Shown here: positions 21,317 through 55,582 of the stretch, piece after piece
How positions within the stretch are numbered: position 1 is the stretch's first letter
Layout of the letters: each line of letters opens with the position of its first letter
IMG/VR virus record: IMGVR_UViG_3300028887_000082
Strand: one strand, 5' to 3'
DNA length: 57,047 nucleotides
Origin: a virus
Taxonomy: Duplodnaviria > Heunggongvirae > Uroviricota > Caudoviricetes
Program-made: the position numbers and the translations under genes
Notes under the pieces: model-generated
Databases searched by the model: none
Told to the model about the DNA's origin: nothing
Seen by the model: only the letters and a program-made list of their open reading frames with translations

Positions 21317-22741
21317 ATGAAGAAAGAAGAATTCCTTAAAATAACCGGATATATTGGTGGTATCATCAAGGGTACTTCCTTTGAGAATCATGTCTTTGCT
21401 GTAGGCGGGTCTGTAAGAGACCTGTGTATGGGTAATGACATCAAGGATATTGACCTTGTAATAGATCTTCCTCATGGTGGTGTGGATTTTGCCAACTGGT
21501 GTAAGAACCAGGGTTACACAAACACTGTTGTGATTTATGAGACCTATGGAACAGCTATGTTCAAATTTAAGGAATTCCCTGGTGAGGAAATTGAGTGTGT
21601 GATGACCAGAGGTGAGAAGTATCTTGACAAGGAATCCAGAAACCCTGTGACATCATTTGCCGACATCAATGAGGATGCAATCAGAAGAGACCTCACCATC
21701 AATGCCCTTTATTATAATGTAAGTACAGGTGAAATCCTGGATCTGGTTGGTGGTATGAAGGATATTGAGGACCATATCATCAGGACCACCAATACTGACC
21801 CTGATGTTGTATTTGATGATGACCCCTTGAGAATCCTGCGAGTAATCCGTTTCGCAACAAGATATGGTTGGGAGATTGAGGAGAAGACCTTCAAGTCTAT
21901 GAAGAAATATGTCAGAAGACTTGACATCATCACCAAGGAGAGGATCCAGGCTGAACTCAACAAGATTCTTCTTTGTAGGAATGCAGTAATGGGTATAGGT
22001 TATATCCATGACATAGGTGCTATGAAATATGTCATCCCGGAGTTTGAGAAATGTTATGGTCTTGAGCAGAATGCTTTTCATTTCGGTGATGTGGCAGAAC
22101 ACACCCTTGCTGTCCTTCAACACCATTGTGAAACCTTTGAACCCAATCTGACAGAGAGACTGGCATGTCTTCTCCATGACATTGGTAAGGTCATCACAAT
22201 GACAGTAAAGGATGGTAAAGTACATTTCTACAACCATGAATATGCAGGTGTGGGTATGGCTGTAAATATCCTCAAAGATTTGAAGTATGACAATGACACC
22301 ATTGATGAGGTATGTTTCCTTATCAAGAACCATATGAGAACCAAGCAGATGGGTGATGGTGCCAGACTTATGAAGGATAAGTCTCTGAACAAACTCCTTT
22401 ATGAGTGCAAGACCTATGAGAGATTTGAGTCTCTTATGAGGATAATTGAGTGTGACAACCTGGCACACAAGAAGGAGTGCTGCATATATCACCAATACAA
22501 GGAACTGACAGAGAAGGTAAAGGGTTCAGACACTTATATGAAGATGTTTGGATACAGACTTCCTGTAACCGGTAATGACATTATGGAAACCTTGGGTATT
22601 GCACCTGGTCCCATTATTGCAGAGATAAACAACAGACTTCTCAAGCAGGCATTCAACAATCCTGGTATCACGAAGGAGAGTTGTCTTGCTATGCTTCCAA
22701 GACTGAATAAAGAGGCAGAACAGGTAATCAAGGAGAAATGA
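21317..22741 (+). CDS. cca: tRNA nucleotidyltransferase (CCA-adding/poly(A) polymerase family) with HD domain
   Basis: VGGSVRD..DIDL, RRDLTINAL, DDPLRILRVIRF, LLHDIGK. Confidence 0.9.
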   Translation: MKKEEFLKITGYIGGIIKGTSFENHVFAVGGSVRDLCMGNDIKDIDLVIDLPHGGVDFANWCKNQGYTNTVVIYETYGTAMFKFKEFPGEEIECVMTRGEKYLDKESRNPVTSFADINEDAIRRDLTINALYYNVSTGEILDLVGGMKDIEDHIIRTTNTDPDVVFDDDPLRILRVIRFATRYGWEIEEKTFKSMKKYVRRLDIITKERIQAELNKILLCRNAVMGIGYIHDIGAMKYVIPEFEKCYGLEQNAFHFGDVAEHTLAVLQHHCETFEPNLTERLACLLHDIGKVITMTVKDGKVHFYNHEYAGVGMAVNILKDLKYDNDTIDEVCFLIKNHMRTKQMGDGARLMKDKSLNKLLYECKTYERFESLMRIIECDNLAHKKECCIYHQYKELTEKVKGSDTYMKMFGYRLPVTGNDIMETLGIAPGPIIAEINNRLLKQAFNNPGITKESCLAMLPRLNKEAEQVIKEK

Positions 22742-45083: not shown

Positions 45084-45096
45084 ATGAGACCAATAT

Positions 45097-45402: not shown

Positions 45403-45423
45403 CTAAGTTATAATAATTAAGGA

Positions 45424-45735
45424 ATGGAACAGAAACCAAGAATTAAGTGGAAGAACTTCAAGATCTGGATTAAGGACCAGTTGAAGAGGAAGACCTGGTT
45501 CAGGAATTTCTTCATTACAGGAAATGCCTGGGGTGGATTCAGTATCAACTCACACATCAACCAGCATACAGGTCAACCGAAGATAACCTACAACCATTTT
45601 GAATCCGCAAAGAAAGCGGCAGACAAGATGAGTCAGAAACATGGTACACATTTCAGTGTTTACAAGTGTCTCTATTGTGACGGTTATCACATAGGAAAGA
45701 ACAGGGAGAATAAGACGGATTATGACAAAAAATAA
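45424..45735 (+). CDS. hypothetical protein
   Basis: Basic; YKCLYCDGYHIG zinc-finger-like tail. Confidence 0.75.
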   Translation: MEQKPRIKWKNFKIWIKDQLKRKTWFRNFFITGNAWGGFSINSHINQHTGQPKITYNHFESAKKAADKMSQKHGTHFSVYKCLYCDGYHIGKNRENKTDYDKK

Positions 45736-45740
45736 AAATT

Positions 45741-46202
45741 ATGAGTAAGTTAGAGAACAAGATCCAGGAGGATATGGTTGAGGCAATGAAGAACAAGAAT
45801 GAGTTTGTACGTGATACACTCAGGATTGTCAAGAGTGAGATAGGTGTCTTCAAGACCAGTGAGAAGTTCATCAAGAGAAATACTGAAATCACAGATGATG
45901 ATATTCAGGGTATCCTTGAAGAGATGGTCAAGAGGAACAGAAAGAACATTGACACAGCGAAGGCCGCAAACCGTGATGACATAGTAAAGAAGAATGAGGA
46001 TGAGATTTCAGTCTTTGAGAGTTATCTCCCAAAGAAGATGACTGAATCAGAGATAGAGGAGGTTGTTGTGAAGACCATCCAGGACCTGGGTGCAACATCA
46101 ATGAAGGATATGGGAAAGGTAATGGGTTTCATCACCAAGACATATGCCGGAAAGGTGGATGGTTCAGTTGTTTCAAAAATTGTGAAGTCTAAACTTGGTT
46201 AA
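45741..46202 (+). CDS. GatB/YqeY domain protein
   Basis: IQEDMVEAMKNK...LPKKMTESEIE...MKDMGKVMG...GKVDGSVVS. Confidence 0.88.
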   Translation: MSKLENKIQEDMVEAMKNKNEFVRDTLRIVKSEIGVFKTSEKFIKRNTEITDDDIQGILEEMVKRNRKNIDTAKAANRDDIVKKNEDEISVFESYLPKKMTESEIEEVVVKTIQDLGATSMKDMGKVMGFITKTYAGKVDGSVVSKIVKSKLG

Positions 46203-46213
46203 TATAAAGAATT

Positions 46214-46444
46214 ATGAAAACTTGGATAATAGTATTGACAATTGCTTTCATCTTCTTGAAGCTTGTTGCAAGAGGGTTTGCAAACTACATCAGGAATGAC
46301 AAGGAAGAGAGAGTGAAGTATTACTTTACCAGTGGTGCAACCCCACTTGGTGTGATACACGGATTCATTTCTCTCTTTGGTACACTGGTAGGATTTGCTG
46401 ATATAATCCTGATCATCATAATGGTTGCGAACAGATTGTTATAA
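46214..46444 (+). CDS. small membrane protein
   Basis: Two hydrophobic segments. Confidence 0.65.
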   Translation: MKTWIIVLTIAFIFLKLVARGFANYIRNDKEERVKYYFTSGATPLGVIHGFISLFGTLVGFADIILIIIMVANRLL

Positions 46445-46459
46445 ATCATTACATAAATA

Positions 46460-46492
46460 TTTGGATGTTTCAGATATTTTTGTTATATTTGT
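46460..46492 (+). promoter_or_regulatory. Bacteroidota sigma70-type promoter
   Basis: TTTG (46460) - 21 nt - TATATTTG (46485), followed by boxA-like 46507-46518. Confidence 0.7.
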
Positions 46493-46551
46493 AACCAGAA
46501 AAGAGAAAGTTCTTTGAAATTTTTAAAATTTGTTCAACATAAATATAATAT

Positions 46552-47334
46552 ATGATTGTCGAACAAATGGATAAACCCAAGTATCATTATTTCTATAAAA
46601 TAACAAATAGACTCAATGGACATTATTATTATGGTGTTCATTCAACATATAATCTTGATGATGGATATATGGGGTCTGGAAAAAGATTACATATTGCTTA
46701 TAAGAAATATGGTATAGAATGTTTTGAAAAGGAAATTTTAAAATTTTTCAATACCAGAAAAGAATGTGAGGAATATGAAGAATCAGTTGTTAATGAAATA
46801 TTGATTGGTGATGACAATTGTTATAATTGTGTACCTGGTGGAGGAACTTTAAAAACTCCAGGAAAAGCATGCTTCATTGATGAAAATGGTAATATTATAC
46901 AAGTAACCACAGAAGATGCACATAAGAGAGGATTAAGAGGTAATGCAGTGGGTACAACATTAGTAATTGTTGATGGTGAATATGTTATGGCTGATGTTGA
47001 TAAACTTAATGATTATGATTCATTTAAGTATCCTATGAGTGGAAAAATAACAGTATATGACAAAAATAATAACCATTATGTTGTAAGTTGTGATGATAAA
47101 AGATATATTTCTGGAGAATTAAGACCATTCTGGTCAGGTAAAAAACTTTCAGAGGAAACAAAAACAAAAATTAAAACATCACTATCACTAATACATCATC
47201 AACAAGGTGAAAAAAATTCTCAATATGGAACTTGTTGGATTACTAAAAATAATGAAAACAAGAAAATTAAAAAAGAGAATTTAGAAACATATCTTAATGA
47301 TGGTTGGGTTAAAGGAAGATTTATAAAACACTAA
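46552..47334 (+). mobile_element. free-standing GIY-YIG (Seg-like) homing endonuclease
   Basis: YFYKITN...YYYGVH...GYMGSG; NUMOD3-like KKLSEETKTKI; AT-richer than neighbours. Confidence 0.8.
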
Positions 47335-47352
47335 ATGTGTTAATGATATATA

Positions 47353-47662
47353 GGTCTTGTTGATACTTTCAGGAAAAACTGTAGGACACGGGTTCGAGTC
47401 CCGCTACCTCCACAAATTTATATTTTTTATATGGGGGTATATTGGTTTTGACTGCTTTTAAGTATGGGAAGAGGAGAGGTCTATCGCCAATAACTGGCAA
47501 AAACAACAATTTCTCTGTAAACTTTGGCCCTGTTGCACAAACAGCTGCTCCAAAGGCTATGATGGCTGCCGCTTAATCGTGGTTTCCCTGATTAGTAAGT
47601 ACACTGGCCAGGCTGGTGTCACAGAAGGTTCTATCCATCTTGTCCAAAAAGATGGATCTTTT
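47353..47662 (+). ncRNA. ssrA: circularly permuted two-piece tmRNA
   Basis: T arm plus 3' acceptor TACCTCC-A (47405-47412) precedes 5' acceptor GGGGGTA (47433); G3:U70; ATAACT|GGC resume; tag 47496-47576 GKNNNFSVNFGPVAQTAAPKAMMAAA*. Confidence 0.88.
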
Positions 47663-47683
47663 GAAAGTTCTTTAAAATATTAT

Positions 47684-47787
47684 ATGGGTGGATTGTATGC
47701 AGTTCTTGATAAGTCTGTATCAGTACTTGCAGATACTGTCTTGAATTAAAGTAAAGAATAGGATCCTGATTACAATAAGTTCCCACC
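47684..47787 (+). ncRNA. candidate ~105-nt structured RNA
   Basis: GGGTGG/CCACCC closure; TCTGTA/TGCAGA hairpin. Confidence 0.35.
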
Positions 47788-47824
47788 CGCCCTTACAGTT
47801 ATGGTTAATCTGTGAAAACCAAAT

Positions 47825-48017
47825 GGGTCAATAGCTCAATGGTAGAGCAGCGGACTGTATAAGGAGTGGTTTACCGGAACAAACCAACCTGGTATGGTCG
47901 AGTGGTCAAAGACGTAGGTTTAGAAAACCGGAGTAAGTTAAAAACTTGCAGACGTTGGTTCAAATCCAACTATCAGGTCTAATCCGCAGGTTGTAGGTTC
48001 GAGCCCTACTTGGCCCG
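47825..48017 (+). tRNA. trnN: interrupted tRNA-Asn(GTT): exons 47825-47858 and 47980-48017
   Basis: Joined exons give a 72-nt cloverleaf with GCGGA-CT GT|T AA-TCCGC, short variable loop and G73. Confidence 0.8.
47888..47978 (+). tRNA. nested type-II tRNA-Ser(AGA)-like gene inside the tRNA-Asn anticodon
   Basis: CCTGGTA/TATCAGG acceptor, TGGTCGAGTGGTCAAAGAC D arm, TT AGA AA loop, long variable hairpin, GTTGG-TTCAAAT-CCAAC. Confidence 0.7.
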
Positions 48018-48021
48018 CAAA

Positions 48022-48109
48022 GTACATAGGAAGTCCTGGTCGTGGTGCACGCTTATGTTAGGTTCGGGTTTGATCAACCCACAGAGGTTCGAGTCCTCTC
48101 TATGTACCA
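48022..48109 (+). ncRNA. tRNA-like RNA with non-canonical D/anticodon region
   Basis: 8-bp acceptor GTACATAG/CTATGTAC, AGAGG-TTCGAGT-CCTCT, GGGTT/AACCC arm. Confidence 0.6.
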
Positions 48110-48126
48110 AATAATAAATATAATAT

Positions 48127-48217
48127 GGAGGAGTGGCAGAGTGGTTTATTGCAGAGGTCTTGAAAACCTCCGGGCGTGTTGAGCGCCCCGTCGGTTCGAA
48201 TCCGGCCTCCTCCGCCA
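48127..48217 (+). tRNA. trnS: tRNA-Ser(TGA)
   Basis: GAGGT-CT TGA AA-ACCTC, long variable arm, G73, CCA encoded. Confidence 0.93.
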
Positions 48218-48398
48218 GTATAACAAATTCCAAAAGTTTGTTATATTTATTAAGGTTTTGTTATGTGTTTGTTTTAAGTTAAAGGTTCTAACCGCAACAA
48301 TTACAAAAAAGATGCTGTTCACATTTTCCAAATGAACCTTGTTTTGTTTCAAACACACAACTTCAAACCAAATAAACATTTAAATTAATTAAAAAAGT

Positions 48399-49040
48399 AT
48401 GAAGAAATTTTTGGCGTTTCTTATGAGCCTTGTGCTCATTTTCGGTTTGAGTTCATGTAACTCTTGCACAAGAAACCAGACTACTCCTACTGAAGAGACC
48501 ACACCGGCAGTTGCTGAGTTGGTTGTTGAGAATGTAATCTCTACTGACCGTCAGGCAATGTACCTTGCACATGGTGGTGACTACAGATGGTATGAGACTG
48601 GTGTTCAACTCAAGGACTGGCTTGATGAAGAGAATGATGGTACTATCGATATGGTAGTTAATGTTTTCCAGGTAATTGAGGAGTATGATTCAACAAGTTT
48701 TGATACCTATGTTTACAAGTATCAGCATTTTTCAGATGGTACTGTAAATGAAGATGGTGTTCATGGTTTCTGGGTTGAGGATTATCCTCTTGAACAGGAA
48801 GTAATTAAGGTAACATTCAAGGAAGCTTACCAGAAGATCCAGGAAGTTAATCTCCCAAGACCTCATTCACGTCAGGTTGTATTGAGAAAGCCTATCGGTC
48901 CTAAGGATTGCAATCCACAGTGGATATTTGGTAATCTCCATGAGCAGATTTGGGTTGATGCAGTTACAGGTGAAGTTACTAACAGTAACCCTGCATTTGA
49001 TGGTCTGAATCTCGGTACTCCACTTGGTGAGTGGCCCTAA
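48399..49040 (+). CDS. putative lipoprotein
   Basis: Signal MKKFLAFLMSLVLIFGLSSC. Confidence 0.8.
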   Translation: MKKFLAFLMSLVLIFGLSSCNSCTRNQTTPTEETTPAVAELVVENVISTDRQAMYLAHGGDYRWYETGVQLKDWLDEENDGTIDMVVNVFQVIEEYDSTSFDTYVYKYQHFSDGTVNEDGVHGFWVEDYPLEQEVIKVTFKEAYQKIQEVNLPRPHSRQVVLRKPIGPKDCNPQWIFGNLHEQIWVDAVTGEVTNSNPAFDGLNLGTPLGEWP

Positions 49041-49052
49041 TAGAAACAATAT

Positions 49053-49115
49053 AGGTTGAATGGTACAACCTGAAGTTAAATATCCACAGGGAAAGGGTTA
49101 GCCCTGGAAGTTAAA
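49053..49115 (+). repeat. two tandem hairpin-GAAGTTAAA modules
   Basis: AGGTTG/CAACCT+GAAGTTAAA and CAGGG/CCCTG+GAAGTTAAA. Confidence 0.45.
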
Positions 49116-49127
49116 GTCACCCAATAC

Positions 49128-49252
49128 TATGATGTGACAAGGAATAGGTATACTTGCGCCACGAGATAATATCAGATGGAAGAAGAGGAAGGGTATTCTT
49201 CATAAAAGTTGGACTAATTTAGTCAATGTGGGTTCGAGTCCCACTATCATAG
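49128..49252 (+). ncRNA. tRNA-shell RNA with expanded anticodon region (125 nt)
   Basis: TATGATG/TATCATA-G acceptor, CAAG/CTTG D stem, variable hairpin, GTGGG-TTCGAGT-CCCAC. Confidence 0.6.
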
Positions 49253-49259
49253 CAAATAT

Positions 49260-49333
49260 CGTGGGGTGCTAGCAGTGGTCAGCTAACTGGGCTCATAACC
49301 CAGAGGTCAGGGGTTCGAATCCCTTCCCCGCTA
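49260..49333 (+). tRNA. trnfM: initiator tRNA-fMet(CAT)
   Basis: C1:U72 mismatch, CTGGG-CT CAT AA-CCCAG (three G-C pairs). Confidence 0.88.
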
Positions 49334-49341
49334 CTAAACTT

Positions 49342-49479
49342 GCCAGTATAGGACAGTATATTGGACATCTGTAACCTCATGGGAGGTCGCAAGAGAGAAT
49401 GAAGGTAACATCTTCAACGTACCGGGTTAGTTCAAAGTAGAATACTCTTGTTATGTAAGTTCGATTCTTACTATTGGCA
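49342..49479 (+). ncRNA. tRNA-shell RNA with multi-hairpin insert (138 nt)
   Basis: GCCAGTA/TATTGGC-A acceptor, GTAAG-TTCGATT-CTTAC T arm, CAAGAG/CTCTTG inner stem. Confidence 0.6.
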
Positions 49480-49508
49480 CAAAAAAAAATAAAAAAGTTT
49501 CAAAAATA

Positions 49509-49540
49509 TTTGGTAGTTTCAAATTTTTTTGTTATCTTTG
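49509..49540 (+). promoter_or_regulatory. Bacteroidota sigma70-type promoter plus boxA-like element
   Basis: TTTG (49509) - 20 nt - TATCTTTG (49533); AAGTTCTTTGA 49550-49560. Confidence 0.8.
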
Positions 49541-49588
49541 TAGTGTTGAAAGTTCTTTGATAGTTTTAAATAAAACAAGGGTGGGTTT

Positions 49589-50654
49589 CTCATCCTTCCC
49601 AAGAAGCCTTCGGGTTGAGGGAGAAAGATAACCAGTGAATACATAAGCTGGGAAAGTCAGTAAGATATTGCATAGTATCCCTGGCGGAGGGTTCAAATCC
49701 TCCCTGTAAGAAAACCAAGATGGTCAGCATATCCTGGAATGGCAGTACACTGTGAAAGGGGTATGCGGAGGCTCTTACCAAGTCTCCTTGAGTGGTAACA
49801 CTGACAAGAACCATTTTGCTTCCGGACAAAAAGATTACCGGTCTGATTGTCTGAATGACCAAAGTTTATTGATATCCAAGAGACTACACCAAGTCTTCCT
49901 AACAGGTGGTGCTGAGATTCCAGAAATGGTTGGATATTAGAATTAGTAGAATGAGTAACACAGAGGTGTGTGAAAGTAGAAAGGTGATGTATCTAAACCT
50001 CTCAAAAGGAGGCATGATAACAAGGGTAACCTCATCTTTCAATCGGTAAATGCTCAATGATTCAAATTGGATGTTGACCAAAGACAGAATAATTAGATTA
50101 TTAAGCAAGCAAAAGTGTTACCCACACTGTAGGACAATACAGTTATGCTTCTGTAAGATGAAGCCTTATGGATCCCGCAAAGTGAAGTAAGAGTATCGCC
50201 AGTATGGACAATGCAAGTGGAGGCATCCACTCAACTCGGCAGAGGTCTTTGGCTTGAAAGCAGCTATGTAATACAGTGTAGTGACTATGGTAGTCTTGGT
50301 GGAAACACCATAAATCCACCTGTATCCGCTTCACCAATAGCAATGTTGGTGTGTGTAAATCTCAGGCGACTGGGACTTGTCCTGAAAAGGAAGAGAGTAG
50401 AGGCGGCGATTGGGGTCAACACTCAGCCCAAATCAATGAATTATTCAGAGTCGGTAACCAGTCCGGTATGGAAGAGCGAGACTTCCCTGGATAACAAAGT
50501 GATATTATAGAGGTACAAATTCTCCTGAATATATAGAACCACTCAGGAGGTTAATTCGAGGCCAGGGATATTACTGAAACAAATTCCCTTTTGGTTCACA
50601 GGGAATGGGAAGAGTGAGTTTGTAATCTGCGAGGTCGGGTTAGTTTTATCTCTT
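49589..50654 (+). ncRNA. giant (~1.05 kb) structured ncRNA candidate, GOLLD/ROOL-like
   Basis: No credible ORF; ends pair (49589-49601 with 50606-50618, 12 of 13); UUCG and GAAA tetraloop hairpins; internal T-loop; own promoter; in tRNA array. Confidence 0.65.
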
Positions 50655-50659
50655 CAAAT

Positions 50660-50733
50660 GGTGCGTTGGTGAAGTTGGTTATCATGCCACCCTGTCACGG
50701 TGGAGTTCACGGGTTCGAGTCCCGTACGCACCG
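50660..50733 (+). tRNA. trnD: tRNA-Asp(GTC)
   Basis: CCACC-CT GTC AC-GGTGG, G73. Confidence 0.93.
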
Positions 50734-50900
50734 CACATAAATATTATGTAAAGAACCATACCGCAATTTTAAACAAATTTCATTTTGATTGAAGAAACCA
50801 TTGGTTCTTGTTTCGTTTCTTTGTTTAGAAAAACAAAGTGGCAGAGACTGGTGGAAACACCCCTCTTGTGAGTGGTAATCTCACATACAAAAACTTGCCG

Positions 50901-50980
50901 GCTATACCCTGGAGGTAAAGGTGTCACAGGCCTATGCATGGGCTGTTTGCAGTACTGGTTCGAATCCAGTCTGGGTAGCA
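50901..50980 (+). pseudogene. degenerate tRNA-like element
   Basis: ACTGG-TTCGAAT-CCAGT T arm, bulged acceptor, extended central hairpin with ATGCAT; preceded by small hairpin cluster 50839-50899. Confidence 0.45.
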
Positions 50981-51003
50981 AATAAAAATGAAAATTGAAT
51001 TTA

Positions 51004-51011
51004 CATAAATA
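51004..51011 (+). promoter_or_regulatory. CATAAATA late-promoter motif upstream of leader 2
   Basis: Same context as leader 1. Confidence 0.55.
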
Positions 51012-51031
51012 ACTTATAAAGATTAAAAATT

Positions 51032-51148
51032 ATGATGACATTGCATACACATATTATGTTTATTGCGGGCAAGCCAGGTTGTTATCGTTTTTGGGAACAG
51101 AAGCAACTCGGACCTAAAGGTGTGTGGGTATGTCACCAGGATAAATAA
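51032..51148 (+). CDS. attenuator leader peptide 2 (38 aa)
   Basis: MMTLHTHIMFIAGKPGCYRFWEQKQLGPKGVWVCHQDK*; GVWVC codons form the antiterminator strand. Confidence 0.75.
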   Translation: MMTLHTHIMFIAGKPGCYRFWEQKQLGPKGVWVCHQDK

Positions 51149-51248
51149 GGATTAAACCAGGATAGGAAAGAAGGTACAGGAAATCCAACAAATATCAATA
51201 GAGACATCTCACACAAATCCAAAAAAAGATTTATGTGAGATTTTTTTT
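51122..51248 (+). terminator. attenuator 2: antiterminator 51122-51134/51203-51214 versus terminator 51206-51248
   Basis: GTGTGGGTATGTC pairs with GACATCTCACAC; ATCTCACACAAATC/GATTTATGTGAGAT plus T-tract. Confidence 0.78.
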
Positions 51249-51256
51249 ATTAACAC

Positions 51257-51331
51257 TGGGTAGTACGGTAATTGGTTCACCGGCTGCATTTGGGATGCAG
51301 ACATATGCGAGTTCGAGTCTCGTCTACCCAA
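51257..51331 (+). tRNA. trnP: tRNA-Pro(TGG)
   Basis: CTGCA-TT TGG GA-TGCAG. Confidence 0.88.
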
Positions 51332-51356
51332 CAAATATACAAAACAAAATAAGATT

Positions 51357-51602
51357 ATGGAGACACTCAAACAGATTGTGAAGGGAAGTGCAAAGTTGGA
51401 ATGCATGAGGAGTGGTGGTGTCGCAGAATACATCATCACATCAGAGACAGGAAAAAGATATGTATTGGACATAGACCTGTCAGACAAGGTGGACTGTGGA
51501 GAGAGTGCTTCATTTATGCCATACTATGAGAGAGCAATAATCCTGATGCGATGGATTCGCAGAGCAATGGAGAAGGGTGAATTGATAGAGTTAAATTCAT
51601 AA
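51357..51602 (+). CDS. hypothetical protein
   Basis: Clean ORF between RNA genes. Confidence 0.7.
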   Translation: METLKQIVKGSAKLECMRSGGVAEYIITSETGKRYVLDIDLSDKVDCGESASFMPYYERAIILMRWIRRAMEKGELIELNS

Positions 51603-51761
51603 ACACATCCGAGATGATCATAGGATGTGGGTTGGGAAGATGAGGATATGTCCGAAAAATTGCATAAAGTAGGATGTATTTAGGTAGCGAGCCCCTCCCT
51701 GGTAGCCAAACAGGTAGTTTAAAGTGCTTAAGAACAGACCAATCATTGAATTATTAGATAT

Positions 51762-51836
51762 GCCGGGTTCTACTAATTGGAATAGGTACCCTGATTTTCA
51801 ATCAGTGCAATATGGGTTCGAGTCCCATACCCGGTA
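51762..51836 (+). tRNA. trnE: tRNA-Glu(TTC)
   Basis: CTGA-TT TTC AA-TCAG; atypical D arm. Confidence 0.8.
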
Positions 51837-51841
51837 CAAAT

Positions 51842-51924
51842 GCGGATGTGGTGTAATGGTAGCCACACTTGGTTCAGAGCTAAGCGGCCGAAAGGCCATA
51901 TGGGTTCGAGTCCCTTCATCCGCA
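51842..51924 (+). tRNA. trnL: tRNA-Leu(CAG)
   Basis: CTTGG-TT CAG AG-CTAAG, long variable arm. Confidence 0.88.
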
Positions 51925-51929
51925 CACAT

Positions 51930-52003
51930 TGGGGGATCATCTAATAGAGTAAGGATACCACTCTGATACAGTGGAAATCCGGGTTCAAATCCCGGCCTCC
52001 CAA
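51930..52003 (+). tRNA. trnI: tRNA(GAT), nominally Ile
   Basis: CCACT-CT GAT AC-AGTGG; body is Gln/Glu-like. Confidence 0.75.
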
Positions 52004-52037
52004 CAAAAGAAAGTTCTTTGACATATTGTACACATTT

Positions 52038-52113
52038 GGGTCTGTGGCAGAGATGGTCTATGCGCTGGACTGAAAATCCAGAGAAGGAGGTTCGAGTCCT
52101 CCCGGACCCACCA
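52038..52113 (+). tRNA. trnF: tRNA-Phe(GAA)
   Basis: CTGGA-CT GAA AA-TCCAG, CCA encoded. Confidence 0.92.
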
Positions 52114-52124
52114 AGATTTGGGAA

Positions 52125-52316
52125 AAGGTTCTTGCATTGATGAAAGTAAATGACACCAGACACCTGATCAGTGAGGAAGTGTTGTTGAAATCGTCTAAAG
52201 TTGAGATGGGGAAAGTGTCATCAGTACTAGTCAAATGATGGGATGGAACTCAAGGAGACATATACTCTGCCTGGCGTGGGAGTCAGGAGGTTCATCAGCA
52301 AGTAAAGTGGAATCTT
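52125..52316 (+). ncRNA. candidate ~190-nt structured ncRNA
   Basis: AAGGTTC/GAATCTT, CTTGC/GCAAG, TGATGAA/TTCATCA, ATGACAC/GTGTCAT. Confidence 0.5.
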
Positions 52317-52321
52317 GACCT

Positions 52322-52405
52322 GTGGGAGTGGCGTAACTGGTAGCCGCGTCGGTCTAAGAAGCCGATCCCAGAAATGGGGTGAGAGTTCGAGTCTCTCTTT
52401 CCACA
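52322..52405 (+). tRNA. trnL: tRNA-Leu(AAG)
   Basis: TCGGT-CT AAG AA-GCCGA, long variable arm; A34. Confidence 0.85.
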
Positions 52406-52412
52406 CAATATT

Positions 52413-52493
52413 GGTCCCGGCATCATAGTAGATGTCATGGAAGCTGCCTGATTCAGCAGGACTGAACAGTGGGGTTCGATACCCTGGGGACCA
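52413..52493 (+). ncRNA. atypical tRNA-like RNA
   Basis: GGTCCC/GGGACC acceptor, 6-bp GGCATC/GATGTC stem, GGGG-TTCGATA-CCCT; no clean anticodon loop. Confidence 0.45.
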
Positions 52494-52499
52494 TCAAAT

Positions 52500-52622
52500 G
52501 TATATGTGAAGCAGATAGGATGTGCTACTACAAGAATTAGTAATCATTTGGATATTGCATACATATGTTCAGTAGAGATGAAAAGGATGTGGACTATGTG
52601 AGTTCGAATCTCATCATATACA
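52500..52622 (+). ncRNA. tRNA-shell RNA with insert (123 nt)
   Basis: GTATATG/CATATAC-A acceptor, GTGAG-TTCGAAT-CTCAT T arm. Confidence 0.6.
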
Positions 52623-52627
52623 TAAAT

Positions 52628-52702
52628 GCTCCCGTAGCTGAGTTGGTTCAAAGCACCTGTCTCTTAAACAGGGGATCCTGGGTTCGAGTCCCAGTGGGAG
52701 TA
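52628..52702 (+). tRNA. trnK: tRNA-Lys(CTT)
   Basis: CCTGT-CT CTT AA-ACAGG. Confidence 0.92.
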
Positions 52703-52712
52703 CAAAACAACT

Positions 52713-52864
52713 GGGGCACAGAGGAGATAAATCGGCTGGAAGCCAGCATTCTATGAAGTCATGAATTCATAAAGTGTACTCTGTGTGAGGGTTTTTACCA
52801 GAGATTGCATCATGCAATTGATGAATGGGAGTTTCCCTTTTAAGTTCGAATCCACAGTGCTCCA
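52713..52864 (+). ncRNA. tRNA-shell-like RNA with G3:U70 acceptor (152 nt)
   Basis: GGGGCAC/GTGCTCC-A, GTTCGAATCC loop without a paired T stem, several inner hairpins. Confidence 0.45.
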
Positions 52865-52869
52865 CAAAT

Positions 52870-53001
52870 GCCGGCTTATCACAGTATATAGGTGACTGTA
52901 GCCGCCCCGTACAGGCGGGTCTGGCCAACCGAAAGTGTACAGCTCGAGACAATGTATATGAGTAGAAGTCAGATATGGATGGTTCGATTCCTCCGATGGC
53001 A
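52870..53001 (+). ncRNA. tRNA-shell-like RNA with internal CC GTA CA hairpin (132 nt)
   Basis: TCAC/GTGA D-like stem, CCGCC-CCGTACA-GGCGG, GGTTCGATTCC T loop; weak acceptor. Confidence 0.45.
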
Positions 53002-53231
53002 CAAAGTTTGTTATATTTTAATAAAGGGTTCTTTATGACAGTTTGAACCTTAGATGTTAATAACTGTTAGTAGTCCTTTGCATCTTTATCCTACTATATC
53101 TTATGAAGATGTTTTAAGCCCAAAGTACACGGGAACGAAGATGGGATCTGCCTCTTAACAATGCATACTGAATCCTCCAAAACGTAGGTTGGCACAGTTA
53201 GACCTCTGGGGTTATTCTAAAAGGTCATTAT

Positions 53232-53304
53232 GGACCATGTAGTGTAACGGCGAGCATATCACATCTGCACTGTGATGGAGGGGTTCGAATCCCACATGTG
53301 TCCA
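53232..53304 (+). tRNA. atypical tRNA(TGC)
   Basis: TCACA-TC TGC AC-TGTGA (C33); bulged acceptor, no G3:U70. Confidence 0.55.
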
Positions 53305-53307
53305 CAA

Positions 53308-53457
53308 ATGAATATTTGAGGTTCCAGAAGGCTTCCGTAATGTGGCATAGTCGGAGGAGACACTGGAGATGGATAAACATGGAAATTCGGGCTACCGGGT
53401 GAGGCAGTGTTAGACGAGGAGGCTTGCTGGAATAAGCAGTCCGGGTAGAATATTCAT
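53308..53457 (+). ncRNA. candidate ~150-nt structured ncRNA
   Basis: 9-bp closure ATGAATATT/AATATTCAT; CTTCCG/CGGAGG; GACACTG/CAGTGTT. Confidence 0.5.
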
Positions 53458-53465
53458 CACAAAAC

Positions 53466-53565
53466 CACAGAGTGTCCAGAGTGTCGAAGCATTGGTTGGT
53501 ATGATGCTTTAAAAGTTTAAACTCTACTCCGAAAGTGGGCGACATATTCGAGACTATACTCTGTG
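53466..53565 (+). ncRNA. candidate ~100-nt structured ncRNA
   Basis: CACAGAGTGT/ATACTCTGTG closure; GTGTCG/CGACAT; AAGCAT/ATGCTT. Confidence 0.5.
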
Positions 53566-53579
53566 TGACAAAACTTTTC

Positions 53580-53655
53580 TATGGTATCTTCTAGTGGTCC
53601 AGGAAGTCCGAGGCTAACAGCGGTAGGGACAGAGGTTCGAATCCTCTTACCATAG
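53580..53655 (+). pseudogene. Gln/Glu-like tRNA with degenerate anticodon arm containing CTA
   Basis: TATGGTA/TACCATA-G acceptor, AGAGG-TTCGAAT-CCTCT; CCG-AGGCTAACAG-CGG anticodon arm. Confidence 0.55.
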
Positions 53656-53677
53656 CAAATTAAATAATTCATATAAT

Positions 53678-54385
53678 ATGAAATTAGGAAATTTAAAGTA
53701 TCATTATTTTTATAAGATAACCAACAATATAAATGGTCATTTTTATTATGGTGTTCATAACACAAATAATTTAGATGATGGTTATATGGGTAGTGGTTTA
53801 AAATTACAAGAAGCATATAAAAAATATGGTATTGAAAACTTCACTAAAGAAATATTAAAGTTCTTTGACACATCTGAAGATGCATTTAAATATGAAAGTG
53901 AGATTGTTACAATTGATTTAATAAAGTCAAAGAAATGTTATAATATTCAACTTGGTGGTAAATCCATTAACACTTCTGGTTTAATTGTTGTTATTGATAA
54001 AAATAATATAAAAACATTAATACCAAAAGATGATGACAAAATAATAAAAGGTAATGTGAAAATTTATTCTCCTTTAAAAAATAAATTGGTTGTAAAATAT
54101 AAAAATGATAATGATTATTTTTTAATTAATAGTGATGAATATGATTCTAACATTTATGAAACAAGTTGGACAAATAGACATCACACACAAGAATCAAAAA
54201 GTAAAATAAGAAAGACTTTAACACCTCAAAATTCTAATAATTCACACATATGGATTAATAAAAATGGGATAGTTAAATATTTAGATAAAAGAAAATTAGA
54301 TGAATATTTAAATGATGGATGGACATTGGGAAGAAGTGGATATAAACCAAGAAAGGGATGTAGAGGTAAGAAAATAGAAATATAA
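53678..54385 (+). mobile_element. free-standing GIY-YIG (Seg-like) homing endonuclease
   Basis: YFYKITNNINGHFYYGVH...GYMGSG; NRHHTQESKSKI; paralog of 46552 gene; very AT-rich. Confidence 0.8.
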
Positions 54386-54388
54386 TTT

Positions 54389-54475
54389 GGGAAGGTTGAG
54401 CAAATGGTTGAGCTCATCGGTCTGTAAAACCGACACTATGAAACACTGTGGGTTCGAGTCCCACCCTTCCCACCA
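54389..54475 (+). tRNA. trnY: tRNA-Tyr(GTA)
   Basis: TCGGT-CT GTA AA-ACCGA, long variable region, ACCA encoded. Confidence 0.9.
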
Positions 54476-54478
54476 AAT

Positions 54479-54549
54479 GCAGGATTAGTTTAATGGTAGA
54501 ATGTCAGCCCTCCAAGCTGAATGTGGGAGTTCGATTCTCCTATCCTGCT
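54479..54549 (+). tRNA. trnG: tRNA-Gly(TCC), C33 variant
   Basis: TCAGC-CC TCC AA-GCTGA, U73. Confidence 0.88.
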
Positions 54550-54555
54550 CTAAAT

Positions 54556-54630
54556 ACCGATGTAGCTCAGTTGGTCCAGAGCAGTGGACTCATATTCCAC
54601 AGGTCATTGGTTCGATTCCAATCATCGGTA
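54556..54630 (+). tRNA. trnM: tRNA-Met(CAT), elongator
   Basis: GTGGA-CT CAT AT-TCCAC; paired 1:72. Confidence 0.85.
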
Positions 54631-54645
54631 CAATAAATATTATAT

Positions 54646-54732
54646 AGGTCGGTGGCCGAGTGGTCGAAGGCAGCGGTCTCCAAAACCGCCAAGATGGTAA
54701 CATCTTCGAGGGTTCGAATCCTTCCCGGCCTG
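54646..54732 (+). tRNA. trnW: tRNA(CCA), nominally Trp, with type-II long variable arm
   Basis: GCGGT-CT CCA AA-ACCGC; AAGATG-GTAA-CATCTT variable hairpin; G73. Confidence 0.82.
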
Positions 54733-54742
54733 CTTGAGGAAT

Positions 54743-54814
54743 TGGACTATTGTGTAATGGTTAGCACATCAGATTTTGGATCTGACAGTCTGGGTTCGAA
54801 TCCCGGTAGTCCAG
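54743..54814 (+). tRNA. trnQ: tRNA-Gln(TTG)
   Basis: TCAGA-TT TTG GA-TCTGA, U1:A72, G73. Confidence 0.92.
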
Positions 54815-54914
54815 CAAAGTAAGAGTGTGGAAATAACTTGTAACTCAAGTAGAGAGTTTCCAGTAAATGGGTGGTGAGAAGAGTAATGAACTTACAATTT
54901 AGCCTTACTGAAAT

Positions 54915-54985
54915 TGGGATATAGTATAAGGGTAGTACGTTTGACTCTGGATCAAAAGGTGTGGGTTCGAATCCTGCTATCCCAG
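54915..54985 (+). tRNA. trnQ: tRNA-Gln(CTG)
   Basis: TTTGA-CT CTG GA-TCAAA. Confidence 0.9.
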
Positions 54986-54991
54986 CAAAAT

Positions 54992-55062
54992 GTCGGGGTG
55001 GCCGAGGGGCTAGGCAGCGGTCTGCAAAACCGCCTACGCAGGTTCGAATCCTGTCTCCGACT
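54992..55062 (+). tRNA. trnC: tRNA-Cys(GCA)
   Basis: GCGGT-CT GCA AA-ACCGC, U73. Confidence 0.92.
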
Positions 55063-55134
55063 CTAAACTCTGGAGCATACCGCCAGTACGGAAGTGGAAA
55101 AGAGGTACTGCTCTGTTTCCTACCAGAGTTAAAT

Positions 55135-55206
55135 GTCCCTGTGGTGTAATGGACAGCATACCAGACTACGGATCTGTTGGAGAGGGTTCGAGTCCTTCCA
55201 GGGATA
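55135..55206 (+). tRNA. trnR: tRNA-Arg(ACG)
   Basis: CAGA-CT ACG GA-TCTG. Confidence 0.9.
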
Positions 55207-55240
55207 CTAAAATTTTGTTATATTTAATGTATAACATCTT

Positions 55241-55312
55241 GCCGGGGTAGCTCAGTGGTAGAGTACATCTTTGGTAAGGATGAGGTCAAGAGTTCAAATC
55301 TCTTCTTCGGCT
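55241..55312 (+). tRNA. trnT: tRNA-Thr(GGT)
   Basis: CATCT-TT GGT AA-GGATG. Confidence 0.92.
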
Positions 55313-55317
55313 CAAAT

Positions 55318-55389
55318 GCAGTGTTCGTATAATGGTTATTATATAGCCTTGCCAAGGCTGAGATGGGAGTTCGATTCTCCTACACTGCT
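55318..55389 (+). tRNA. trnG: tRNA-Gly(GCC)
   Basis: TAGCC-TT GCC AA-GGCTG, U73. Confidence 0.88.
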
Positions 55390-55390
55390 C

Positions 55391-55577: not shown

Positions 55578-55582
55578 TATAT

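Follow-up and report, generated by a model that had tools for sequence, protein, structure and literature searches.

The closest known architecture to the RNAs described here is phage T4 species 1 RNA (rnaC). Like them, it is encoded within a phage tRNA cluster, on the same strand as the tRNAs, and it is a small stable RNA. Within its 139 nt, a terminal stem with five of seven pairs formed abuts a canonical T arm (CCGGG-UUCGAAU-CCCGG), and ~100 nt of hairpins lie inside; its neighbour rnaD has no T arm. To our knowledge, the function of rnaC is still unknown.

Several other systems combine tRNA-like and non-tRNA parts. Bacterial Y RNAs such as YrlA are non-decoding and bear a tRNA-like module (T arm, D arm and acceptor-like helix) that lies distal to the termini, which form the Ro-binding stem; YrlA RNAs are found in phages too. 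In tmRNA, the acceptor and T arm of the tRNA-like domain close around a large non-tRNA interior, as they do in the RNAs studied here. Plant mitochondrial t-elements and MALAT1 mascRNA are non-decoding tRNA-like cleavage signals for RNase P and RNase Z. Ponchon and Dardel reportedly engineered a "tRNA scaffold" in 2007, in which a cargo RNA replaces the anticodon arm and tRNA processing yields a stable chimera. Lak megaphages have elongated tRNA genes whose insert is sometimes itself tRNA-like (Devoto et al. 2019, PMC6784885).

We analysed a 57,047-nt window (the whole stretch of DNA studied) from a giant rumen phage that carries about nine tRNA-shaped RNA genes, hereafter called shells, among ~30 normal tRNA genes (Table 1). 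The shells are probably tRNA-derived genes for small non-decoding RNAs.

Table 1. Shells and associated features of the window
Feature	Length (nt)	Position	Strand	Description
Family A	85	48023..48107	+	acceptor UACAUAG/CUAUGUA, D-like stem, hairpin X, T arm, CAAA trailer
Family B	125	49128..49252	+	acceptor, D arm, core, hairpins, T arm, G73 + CAAA trailer
Family C	138	49342..49479	+	acceptor, D-like arm ACAG...CUGU, branched module, T arm
Family D	74 (tRNA-sized)	50905..50978	+	acceptor 6/7 bp, T arm ACUGG-UUCGAAU-CCAGU, G73 + CAAA trailer
Family E	83	52412..52494	+	acceptor UGGUCCC/GGGACCA, two hairpins, T arm
Family F	76 (tRNA-sized)	53580..53655	+	acceptor, canonical D arm, T arm conserved
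Element G	123	52500..52622	+	acceptor, D arm AGCA-GAUAGGAUG-UGCU, anticodon-like arm, T arm
Element H	152	52713..52864	+	acceptor 7/7 (GGGGCAC/GUGCUCC), UUCGAAU loop, A73 + CAAA trailer
Family I	132	52870..53001	+	bulged acceptor (GCC..AUC/GAU GGC), D arm ACAGU-AUAUAGGUG-ACUGU, bulged T arm
tRNA-Asn(GUU), split		47825..48017	+	121-nt insert between anticodon bases 35 and 36
GOLLD-like large RNA		49572..50436	+	between shells C and D
Nucleotidyltransferase (PolyA_pol/CCA-adding) domain		21395..21784	+	in 476-aa phage ORF; 92.6 bits

Comparison with described systems

The T4 and rumen phage clusters share more than their strand. Both contain GIY-YIG homing endonucleases (segB in T4; ORFs 46552-47331 and 53678-54382 here), and the shell-plus-cargo plan of rnaC recurs in B, C, G and I. 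The two differ in that no sequence relation joins them, the family B covariance model matching tRNA-Leu alone in the T4 locus. Moreover, the rumen phage shells differ from rnaC in their fully paired 7-bp acceptors and in the D arm that most of them have, and about nine shells in several unrelated families compare with two RNAs in T4.

The remaining systems resemble the shells in part. Shell termini form the acceptor stem, unlike the Ro-binding stem of Y RNAs. A likeness to bacterial Y RNAs suggested by the first-pass annotation does not extend to membership, as the YrlA model (Rfam RF02553) matches no shell and no Ro/TROVE gene was found in the 64%-complete record. No tmRNA model matches a shell, and none has the G3:U70 pair. 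The t-elements and mascRNA set the boundaries of a long RNA next to them, whereas most shells stand between real tRNAs and the interiors of several are conserved; weak matches to mascRNA in Rfam fall on canonical tRNAs only. The engineered tRNA scaffold is artificial, and shells here often carry cargo at the variable-arm position. A natural counterpart of that scaffold had been proposed for this locus in the first pass. Finally, Lak-type tRNA introns share the setting of huge gut/rumen phages with Bacteroidota-type hosts, and the present genome has cases of this type, among them the split tRNA-Asn. Removal of such an insert gives a normal tRNA, which is not so for the shells.

Shells in a tRNA array

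Scanning 43-56 kb for shells yielded 32 elements on the + strand, 24 of them canonical and 8 not called as tRNAs, and none on the - strand. The same scan of 300 dinucleotide shuffles gave a mean of 0.09 elements (maximum 1). Shells occur exclusively on the + strand, where they follow the register of the tRNA array with spacers of 5-10 nt, and all carry an N73-CAAA/TAAA trailer, which 15 of 30 canonical tRNAs also have. ARAGORN and Rfam do not call them as tRNAs, with the exception of F, which is called through its other arms.

It is the anticodon arm that is replaced or truncated by non-tRNA mass; none of A, B, C, D or E contains a 5-bp/7-nt arm. Extra mass in C, G and I sits mainly at the variable-arm position of class-II tRNAs. 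B, C, F, G and I each have a D stem of 4-5 bp whose loop contains GG. Thus the first-pass description of a replaced D/anticodon region holds for the anticodon arm, which is lost or remodelled, but not for the D arm, which most shells keep and whose stems covary in B and F.

The same annotation had singled out A, B, C and G as strong shells, and each indeed has a 7/7 acceptor, a 5/5 T stem, a TTCGA-type loop and a discriminator. It had ranked three others as weaker. E proved as strong as the four; H has the same 7/7 pairing in its acceptor, as well as a TTCGAAT loop, yet direct reading of the sequence shows pairing at only two of five T-stem positions; and I, with a bulged acceptor (3+3 bp) and T stem, nonetheless keeps a GUA anticodon-like arm. 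D and F are additions to that list.

Anatomy and covariation of the shell families

Family A (n=6 homologues; L019, L023, L024, L037 and L001 among related loci) has an invariant G-1 (48022) facing C73, as in tRNA-His, and a conserved single-stranded AUGUUGGGUU between the D-like stem and hairpin X; it has no anticodon arm. All three of its inner helices covary: the T stem is AGAGG/CCUCU or GUGGG/CCCAC, a D-like pair is AU, CG or UA, and hairpin X is GGGUU/AACCC or GGAGG/CCUCC.

Family B combines a D arm (CAAG-GAAUAGGUAUA-CUUG), a 22-nt core (GCGCCACGAGAUAAUAUCAGAUGG), a 6-bp hairpin with purine-rich loop GAGGAAGGG and a small variable-arm-like hairpin. The core is constant in five distinct sequences, but L040, the most divergent member, has mostly altered or lost it. 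Across 8 full members, 10 of 25 pairs show double-sided changes and 97.6% of cells are paired; 0/500 shuffles match this covariation, and only 0-1 pairs of this kind arise in slid controls. Under the covariance model, members reach 108-155 bits, and nothing else exceeds 32 bits. A 9-codon ORF is frame-shifted in L001, leaving no conserved tag reading frame.

In family C, a 5-bp stem with a 4-nt loop takes the place of the anticodon arm, and a branched ~64-nt module, in which stem CAAGAG/CUCUUG surrounds hairpin GAAG-GUAACAU-CUUC, occupies the variable-arm position. Among 35 pairs, 7 carry double changes (0/500 shuffles), and cargo helices account for six of these. L001 and L022 have a 47-nt deletion form of acceptor and T arm only (a minihelix). 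Sequence sharing between the C insert and the tRNA at 54646, noted in the first pass, is exact: there are just two copies of the 12-mer GGTAACATCTTC, one at 49404 and the other at 54696, against an expectation of 0.

Family E has a D-like hairpin without GG (CAUC-AUAGUA-GAUG), a 9-nt linker, a 4-bp hairpin and an unusual T loop, UUCGAUA. In its homologues, L001 and L094 (a 411-kb phage), acceptor pair C5-G68 is G-C, a double-sided change, and a hairpin U-A pair is C-G. Compensatory changes, whose absence would have told against the first-pass reading, are thus found in shell helices and, for C, in cargo helices too.

The tRNA-sized families vary most where an anticodon would be. Family D, with a variable, non-canonical anticodon region, scores 21.2 bits against Rfam tRNA, under threshold; L019 has an identical copy, the L023 copy is conserved outside this region, and in L001 and L037 the tRNA-like half is absent. 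Family F scores 36.3 bits, and its D stem is CUUC/GAAG, CAUA/UAUG or CGUC/GACG depending on the relative. Its 22-24-nt anticodon region is unalignable among relatives, with an 8-nt loop (CAUUCAGU) in L001/L037 and CCG-10 nt-CGG in the window.

Family I carries a 5-bp/7-nt anticodon-like arm with GUA, whose loop CCGUACA places C at positions 33 and 37, and a ~57-nt variable-arm region. It is 86% identical to the L001/L037 copies (blastn over 136 nt); in the three-way alignment, mean column identity is 95% and stem changes are wobble-compatible. Element G has an anticodon-like loop CAAGAAU (A33) and a ~54-nt region at the variable-arm position. Both G and H are singletons: no homologue of G was found in any locus compared or in IMG/VR, and none was found for H. 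Both may be decaying copies, H probably so.

Such arms raise the question of whether some shells read codons with unusual loops. Family I would then be a tRNA-Tyr(GUA) bearing C33/C37 and an outsized variable arm; G would resemble a Ser(AGA) tRNA; and the 8-nt loop (UUCA) would make F of L001/L037 a quadruplet or UGA reader. The GUA arm of I is retained in three of three genomes, C33 also occurs in 4/30 canonical tRNAs of the array, ARAGORN calls L037 13915-13987 a tRNA with the four-base anticodon ttca, and relatives have suppressor tRNAs (CUA in L039 and L043; UCA in L036). However, a pyrimidine at position 37 occurs in 0/30 canonical tRNAs, the unalignable anticodon region of F leaves no fixed codon readable, A-E lack any 5-bp/7-nt arm, and the phage already has a canonical tRNA-Tyr(GUA) (54389-54475). 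Decoding, all three candidates taken jointly, is quite unlikely.

Conservation and turnover

Homologues in syntenic positions are found for A, B, C, E and I in related huge phages of the rumen, with 3-8 per family and all from one rumen phage clade; several differences between homologues may be single inherited events. Between the window and L001, identity over length is 0.80 for A and B and 0.89 for E and I, compared with 0.66 for canonical tRNAs, 0.46 for spacers and 0.83 for GOLLD. A, B, E and I are therefore more conserved than the adjacent canonical tRNAs. Turnover is nevertheless high: G and H are lineage-specific, C and D are truncated in relatives, and a shell intact in L001 (159 nt) and L037 has a decayed counterpart in the window (53304-53475) that has lost its T arm.

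These observations bear on the possibility that shells are decaying tRNA pseudogenes, that is, duplicates that lost the anticodon arm and gained insertions, with ends that are young or T arms refreshed by recombination. The singletons G and H, the broken T stem of H, the deletions and losses in C, D and the 53304-53475 remnant, and MFE z-scores that are unremarkable except in C (-2.9) and E (-2.6) all fit decay. So do the T-arm sequences GUGGG...CCCAC and AGAGG...CCUCU, common to other array members; exchange with nearby tRNA genes by recombination could account for T-arm swaps. By contrast, shell acceptors match none of the array's canonical tRNAs, so gene conversion cannot explain their pairing, and nothing else in the array could have donated the compensated D stems, acceptor stems and cargo helices. 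The family B core, constant outside L040, points the same way. Compensatory changes together with conservation above canonical tRNAs and far above spacers make simple decay unlikely for A, B, E and I, and for the shells at large we regard it as unlikely too. The first-pass argument that random decay should strike the shell as well loses force, since decay or loss does occur (C, D and 53304-53475).

Genomic setting

The insert of the split tRNA-Asn holds a tRNA-Ser-like cloverleaf, and its removal restores tRNA-Asn, which made this gene the positive control for an intron test. If shells were intron-bearing genes, splicing out the inserts would leave ordinary decoding tRNAs. Interrupted tRNAs do occur in the same phage clade: besides the split tRNA-Asn, L001 has a tRNA-Ser(UGA) with a ~190-nt insert and a tRNA-Leu(UAA) with a ~88-nt insert. 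The phage encodes two Rnl2-type RNA ligases, and tRNA introns are published for Lak phages (PMC6784885). Yet no internal deletion scanned in D, E, H or I gives a full cloverleaf, whereas the same logic restores the control. For B and C, deletion scans against shuffled interiors gave 135 vs 23 and 133 vs 10, a modest excess of about 6- to 13-fold, and the calls disagree in anticodon. Inserts are not flanked by anticodon-stem halves, and the candidate anticodon stem of family A is 3/5 paired at positions that differ between homologues. We consider introns exceedingly improbable.

Other RNA genes lie nearby. A permuted tmRNA is at 47321-47667. The GOLLD-like RNA, matched at 77 bits (E about 1e-19 to 1e-21; the gathering score, 150, is not reached), has its own promoter of Bacteroidota type (49509-49540), and C is the final element ahead of that promoter. 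The GOLLD-like RNA reaches a depth of 60-580 in four metatranscriptomes. In assembled metatranscriptome contigs, which hold no RNA-end information, B, C, D and I appear at low depth, about that of the neighbouring ORF, and DNA carry-over is possible.

This setting could suit processing punctuation, in which a minihelix recruits RNase P and RNase Z to cut array transcripts, so that neighbouring mRNAs and RNAs acquire their ends and the interior is free to drift. Plant mitochondria offer a precedent; ORF 48399-49040 stops 87 nt before B, C and I are each last before promoter-like motifs, and interiors are dispensable or hypervariable in F, D and the short form of C. However, canonical tRNAs at 5-10 nt flank most shells and would supply the cuts, and the conserved or covarying interiors of B, long C, E and I would be unneeded. 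Punctuation alone is, in our judgment, distinctly improbable.

Processing and possible roles

We favour non-decoding RNA genes. On the sequence evidence, at least A, B, C, E and I are likely to be functional, processed, non-decoding RNAs. Helices are maintained across related phages in these five families, through compensatory changes in B and C, and the parts on which RNase P, RNase Z and CCA addition depend (acceptor, T arm and 3' trailer) are intact. The shells would have arisen from tRNAs, given the tRNA-Tyr-like appearance of I and the Ser-like loop of G, by truncation or remodelling of anticodon loops and, in C, G and I, expansion of the variable-arm region.

Host RNase P would cleave at +1, and in family A probably at -1 because of the G-1:C73 pair. 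RNase Z or exonucleases would trim at N73|CAAA, and the phage's own CCA-adding enzyme would add CCA. The predicted products are stable L-shaped RNAs, in which the GG-containing D loop of most shells could form an elbow with the T loop.

Any one specific function can be held only tentatively, and our search for antisense targets across the phage genome found none prominent. Speculatively, shells may bind a factor that reads the top half of tRNA and not the anticodon. One role might be that of a sponge or decoy, occupying a host enzyme or a defence that is directed at tRNA. The anti-phage tRNases PrrC, AriB, PtuAB and RorSlfn5 cleave the anticodon arm (PMC13056530), the part absent from shells, which argues against a simple decoy. 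Alternatively, shells might serve the phage as stable carriers that display the inner modules conserved in B and C.

Results

An array with unannotated tRNA-shaped members

An IMG/VR virus record of 153.6 kb, with an estimated completeness of 64%, contains the window as its bases 24250-81296. One DNA run labelled bovine gut metagenome contains 97% of sampled words and is possibly the sample of origin; the words also occur in other gut metagenomes, of bovine, goat and sheep. ARAGORN predicts 30 tRNAs and one permuted tmRNA in the interval 43.4-55.7 kb, every one on the + strand, and Rfam is concordant. Promoters of the form TTTG-N-TAnnTTTG, which we take to be the Bacteroidota type, are conserved in the array (12 matches, 3.1 expected). 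Upstream of most array genes (43447-55659) stands ...AAAU or AUAU; downstream comes N73-CAAA in place of CCA. C33 replaces the near-universal U33 in four of the 30 canonical tRNAs (Asn 44111, Lys 44560, Ala 53232, Gly 54479). The phage encodes a CCA-adding-type nucleotidyltransferase of 476 aa and two Rnl2-family RNA ligases, together a toolkit for tRNA maturation and repair.

Interspersed with these genes are tRNA-shaped, non-decoding elements, hereafter shells, in which an acceptor stem and T arm enclose an inner module, or cargo. A scan of both strands required a 5/5 T stem, a loop of the TTYRA type and a 7/7 acceptor with its 3' strand directly beside the T arm. Between 43 and 56 kb the scan returned 32 elements on the + strand and none on the - strand, against a mean of 0.09 in 300 dinucleotide shuffles, so the shells claimed by the first-pass annotation are real. 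Eight of the 32 are not annotated as tRNAs: 47825-48017, A, B, C, D (50822/50905-50978), E, F and G. They lie a tRNA-like 5-10 nt from their neighbours and, as is usual in the array, have CAAA after the discriminator, or TAAA in the case of G. E, H and I had been listed as weak members, which holds for H, with its failed T stem, and for I, with bulges in both helices, but not for E, which passes the full scan.

Coordinates of the shells and associated features, with helix pairing and homologues (L numbers are loci from related phages; positions are in the window unless a locus or genome is named)
Feature	Location	Acceptor pairing	T stem pairing	Homologues or remark
A	48023-48107	7/7	5/5	6: window, L019, L023, L024, L037, L001
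B	49128-49252	7/7	5/5	8 full members, divergent L040 included
C	49342-49479	7/7	5/5	4 long forms: window, L019, L023, L037; 47-nt deletion forms: L001, L022
D	50905-50978	6/7	5/5	3: window, L019, L023
E	52412-52494	7/7	5/5	3: window, L001, L094
F	53580-53655	7/7	5/5	4: window, L001, L037, L034
G	52500-52622	7/7	5/5	none among loci or in IMG/VR
H	52713-52864	7/7	2/5, TTCGAAT loop	none among loci or in IMG/VR
I	52870-53001	bulged, 3+3 bp	bulged	3: window, L001, L037
Shell remnant	53304-53475		T arm lost	weakly aligning counterpart of the next row
Shell of 158-159 nt	L001 14499-14657; L037 13635-13792	intact	intact	first pair G-U vs C-G
Interrupted tRNA-Asn(GUU)	47825-48017			
Interrupted tRNA-Asn	L001 9246-9420			
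tRNA-Ser(UGA) with insert	L001 9541-9815			orthologue of window's
tRNA-Leu(UAA) with insert	L001 5869-6031			
Class-II tRNA(CCA)	54646-54733			orthologue in L001
tRNA-Tyr	54389-54475			
79-nt element	L036 8022-8100; L001 6097-6175			
Unrelated element in slot of G	L094 8190-8335			
Suppressor-type tRNAs	L039 5045-5133; L043 5976-6065; L036 8777-8849			
tmRNA	47321-47667			
GOLLD-like RNA	49979-50429			
Promoter	49509-49540			TTTG...TAnnTTTG
Lipoprotein-like ORF	48399-49040			adjoins B
Two GIY-YIG ORFs	within tRNA array			
CCA-adding-type nucleotidyltransferase domain	21395-21784			
Two Rnl2-type RNA ligases	genome C1:151433-151921 and 115266-115805			

ARAGORN calls none of the shells, nor does it when introns are allowed, a setting that yields one spurious 1.5-kb "intron" call. 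F alone passes the Rfam RF00005 gathering threshold (36.3 bits; threshold 29); D (21.2) and the 3' part of C (21.6) score below it, and the remaining shells have no match. At a permissive threshold across 43-56 kb, Rfam places no known family on the cargo regions. Because tRNA finders and Rfam miss them, shell genes are invisible in annotation.

Two candidate features were discarded. A 157-nt version of D (50822-50978) has an "acceptor" with four G-U pairs, and relatives keep its 5' 80 nt without a T arm; the true D element is the shorter one. An 8-bp acceptor extended by a -1:73 pair does not mark shells, being present in 22 of the 30 canonical tRNAs through U at -1. The one distinctive -1:73 pair among shells is the G-1:C73 of A, found in all six copies.

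Remodelled tRNAs rather than empty shells

The first-pass annotation described the D and anticodon regions as replaced by folded inserts. This is correct for the anticodon arm but not for the D arm. Five shells (B, C, F, G, I) keep a D stem of 4-5 bp with a GG-containing loop, and the arm covaries in B and F. A has a covarying D-like stem; the GG is missing from the hairpin of E and from the short forms of A. The canonical anticodon arm (5-bp stem, 7-nt loop, U33, purine 37) is missing in A-F. In its place A has a conserved single strand of 10 nt (AUGUUGGGUU) plus a single hairpin, B an invariant 22-nt core followed by a hairpin of 6 bp whose loop is GAGGAAGGG, C a 5-bp stem closing a loop of just 4 nt, and E a 9-nt linker followed by a 4-bp hairpin. 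D and F are tRNA-sized, with non-canonical anticodon regions that cannot be aligned among relatives. The 7-nt loop of G carries A33, and I has a 5-bp/7-nt arm with GUA, but with C33 and C37.

Most of the extra sequence in C, G and I (54-64 nt) occupies the position of the long variable arm in class-II tRNAs. The inner hairpin loop of C is also the variable-arm loop of the class-II-like tRNA(CCA) at 54646; the shared 12-mer reported earlier, GGTAACATCTTC, is indeed present at 49404 and 54696. Since D arms are kept, the anticodon arm is lost or remodelled and the added mass lies at the variable-arm position, the shells appear to be derived from tRNAs, in several cases of class-II type, and not to be empty shells around foreign RNA.

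The tRNA(CCA) itself combines a Trp-codon anticodon with a class-II body, in which a D loop of Ser/Leu type and G73 accompany a long variable arm. Its L001 orthologue has the same architecture and another variable arm. Depending on the amino acid that it carries, it may miscode or recode UGG.

Two further readings of B were rejected. The self-complementary GAUAAUAUC was considered as a dimerisation site, but the palindrome is broken in the L022 variant; the frame of a 9-codon ORF (ATGGAAGAA...TAA) is not kept in L001.

Conservation, covariation and turnover

Relatives fetched through the lipoprotein-like ORF comprise 15 IMG/VR and 70 rumen metagenome loci, to which motif scans added a 411-kb phage (L094). 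Beyond these, the cores of B and E have no match in 185,579 prokaryote genomes, and a megablast of 47-56 kb against the phages collection matched a single 78-nt tRNA stretch. Between the window and the syntenic L001, identity over length is 0.80 for A and B and 0.89 for E and I. Canonical tRNAs and spacers give 0.66 and 0.46, and the GOLLD RNA 0.83; the neighbouring ORF has 74% protein identity.

The first-pass annotation had made its proposal depend in part on compensatory changes among homologues, and such changes are found, in few sequences and a single clade. B has changes on both sides in 10 of 25 pairs with 97.6% of cells paired; no column shuffle out of 500 matches it on any of five measures, and slid controls yield 0-1 pairs of this kind. 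Most members have CAAG/CUUG as D stem and the divergent L040 has UCGG/CCGA; the acceptor and T stems also carry compensatory changes. Among the long forms of C, 7 of 35 pairs have changed on both sides, six of them within the inserted module, where hairpin 3 occurs as GAAG/CUUC, GAGG/CCUC or AGGG/CCCU and the long stem as CAAGAG/CUCUUG or CAAGUA/UACUUG. In A, the T stem (AGAGG/CCUCU or GUGGG/CCCAC) and hairpin X (GGGUU/AACCC or GGAGG/CCUCC) each have two versions, and one pair of the D-like stem takes three Watson-Crick forms. One acceptor pair of E has switched from C-G to G-C. F has three versions of its D stem, with acceptor and T arm identical and the anticodon region diverged beyond alignment.

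Swaps of whole T arms could reflect recombination with neighbouring tRNA genes. Against this, no other tRNA of the array has an acceptor sequence matching those of the shells, and the changes in D stems and cargo have no donor. To judge from these comparisons, A, B, C, E and I are maintained by selection.

Other members are less stable. L001 and L037 share a shell of 158-159 nt with acceptor and T arm intact; in its weakly aligning counterpart in the window the T arm has been lost (UUCGACU to UCCGGGU), which is direct evidence of decay inside the array. Given this remnant, the singletons G and H and the broken T stem of H, the shell set is gained and lost quickly, and some members are probably on their way out.

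Relatives carry two further elements. In L094 the slot of G is filled by an unrelated structured element of ~145 nt, closed by a 7-bp stem (AACCCUG/CAGGGUU) and without a T arm. L036 and L001 share a 79-nt element with a proper tRNA-Ile(UAU) anticodon arm and no normal D arm; by eye its 46-nt interior is the same in both, and the acceptors are wholly unlike (ACUGGAG/CUCCAGU vs GCGGGUG/CACCCGU). This is the inverse of the shell pattern.

Introns or decoding are unlikely to account for the shells

Introns have been published for tRNAs of Lak megaphages (PMC6784885), and interrupted tRNAs occur here. In the window's tRNA-Asn(GUU), a 121-nt insert separates anticodon base 35 from base 36; it begins with a conserved linker of 29 nt, which contains a GGUUU/AAACC hairpin, and continues into a nested tRNA-like gene. 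The linker recurs in L001 together with a different nested mini-tRNA of 68 nt, and the gene is intact at the corresponding position in L019 and L021-L024. Also in L001, the anticodon loop of tRNA-Ser(UGA) contains a ~190-nt insert that may be a small group I-like intron, and tRNA-Leu(UAA) has a ~88-nt insert with a T-arm-like minihelix.

We therefore considered the shells as intron-bearing tRNAs, of Lak or group I type, by removing each possible internal segment and running ARAGORN on every product. Deleting 47859-47979 from the tRNA-Asn, the positive control, restored a perfect tRNA-Asn(GUU). No deletion gave a full-length call for D, E, H or I. B and C gave few calls, ~6- to 13-fold over a shuffled-interior control, with inconsistent anticodons; A gave many, all on a 3/5 "anticodon stem" unconserved among homologues. 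With calls absent, inconsistent or unconserved, and no hidden tRNA uncovered, we rejected the intron reading.

We also asked if some shells could still decode. The best candidate is I, whose GUA loop is kept in 3/3 genomes and whose C33 recurs in canonical tRNAs of the window. Yet position 37 is a purine in all 30 of these tRNAs, never a pyrimidine, and the array already contains a normal tRNA-Tyr. F cannot read a fixed codon, since its anticodon region differs wholly between relatives. Suppressor-type tRNAs (anticodon CUA; anticodon UCA) occur in three relatives and none in the window; they hint at stop-codon recoding in parts of the phage clade.

A highly expressed GOLLD-like RNA beside the shells

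Within the array lies a GOLLD-like RNA (77 bits, E 6e-19, under the Rfam gathering score of 150), immediately preceded by one of the conserved promoters and located downstream of tRNA-Met, as reported for GOLLD env-38. We compared four metatranscriptomes from four studies with 47.3-55.7 kb. In all four, which are from rumen, the GOLLD region (49572-50436) is among the most deeply covered stretches, at a depth of 60-580, and RNA contigs of 624-718 nt match the GOLLD-like RNA with 2-7 mismatches. Nearby regions are mostly far shallower, though the tRNA-bearing bin 55168-55448 also reaches 28-846. RNA contigs overlap B, C, D and I in part at a depth of 2-26; these are assembled contigs, which carry no information on ends, strand or processing. 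This coverage says little about shell expression, and RNAs of tRNA size are under-represented in standard libraries. The longest exact antisense matches that shells have elsewhere in the 153.6-kb genome measure 10-14 nt, are AT-rich and, in our judgement, lie near chance.

Comparison with known RNAs

The closest architectural parallel is T4 rnaC (species 1 RNA), 139 nt long, in which a terminal stem of 5/7 bp, directly next to a canonical T arm, surrounds two long hairpins, at the end of a tRNA cluster containing the GIY-YIG endonuclease segB. B, C, G and I share this layout: 120-140 nt, on the tRNA strand of a phage tRNA cluster, with terminal stem and T arm enclosing hairpins. The rnaC type, as read and folded from the T4 tRNA region, is an architectural class, not a curated family. 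There is no homology between rnaC and B, whose covariance model matches ordinary tRNAs alone in the T4 locus (L090). On architecture, we regard the shells as a variant of the rnaC type, the tRNA-like stable RNAs found in phage tRNA clusters, a known kind that still lacks an explanation.

The comparison with bacterial Y RNAs drawn by the first-pass annotation does not hold as family membership. The YrlA/Y RNA model (RF02553) matches no shell; its sole match, 21.2 bits (E 1.3) at 55150-55292, falls over canonical tRNAs. A search of the 153.6-kb, 64%-complete record found no gene for Ro (TROVE, PF05731), RtcB or peptidyl-tRNA hydrolase. Models of tmRNA match the phage's own tmRNA and none of the shells, and the G3:U70 alanine identity pair of tmRNA occurs in none of them. 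Literature searches found no description of such tRNA-like families.

Discussion

The shells have tRNA-type ends, mostly a GG-containing D loop, a common trailer and no decoding arm. They would be co-transcribed with the tRNA array, cut at the 5' end by RNase P, trimmed at N73 and given CCA by the phage enzyme, yielding stable L-shaped RNAs. Some might also be charged. G-1:C73 is a tRNA-His feature, and under tRNA-identity rules it suffices for histidylation of minihelices; the pair, invariant in A, makes A a candidate for histidylation without an anticodon. B resembles tRNA-Ser in its G73 and variable-arm hairpin.

Different members may work through different parts. F, D and the short form of C keep the shell while the anticodon region is free or lost, which fits a role via the tRNA top half as sponge, decoy or enzyme partner. 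The invariant cores of B and long C argue that in these the interior is the working part. A plain decoy role is no easy fit, because known anti-phage tRNases cut the anticodon arm (PMC13056530). The proposal of natural tRNA scaffolds or decoys is thus partly supported: selection is seen on both shell and cargo, and processing and function are putative. More speculatively, and we think improbably, the phage would make CCA-tailed, possibly aminoacylated, anticodon-less mimics that work with the highly expressed GOLLD or as sponges. They would in the first case be cargo or partners of a GOLLD nanocage, and in the second bind immune sensors and host factors that recognise the top half of tRNA.

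To our knowledge, T4 species 1 RNA, 50 years old and with its role unexplained, is the only published precedent for a non-decoding phage tRNA-shaped RNA. Here several independent families share a single array, accompanied by a GOLLD RNA and a CCA-adding enzyme of the phage. Several families with clear covariation cluster beside GOLLD and offer direct experimental handles. At 77-140 nt, with defined helices and invariant cores, shells are short test objects for processing, charging and pull-down work, and natural models for the engineered tRNA-scaffold strategy. The main current reading of phage tRNA genes is that they supplement codons or replace tRNAs that host defence nucleases have destroyed (PMC10264068, PMC11555353). 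A conserved, non-decoding set of tRNA-shaped RNAs points to a second phage use of the tRNA fold.
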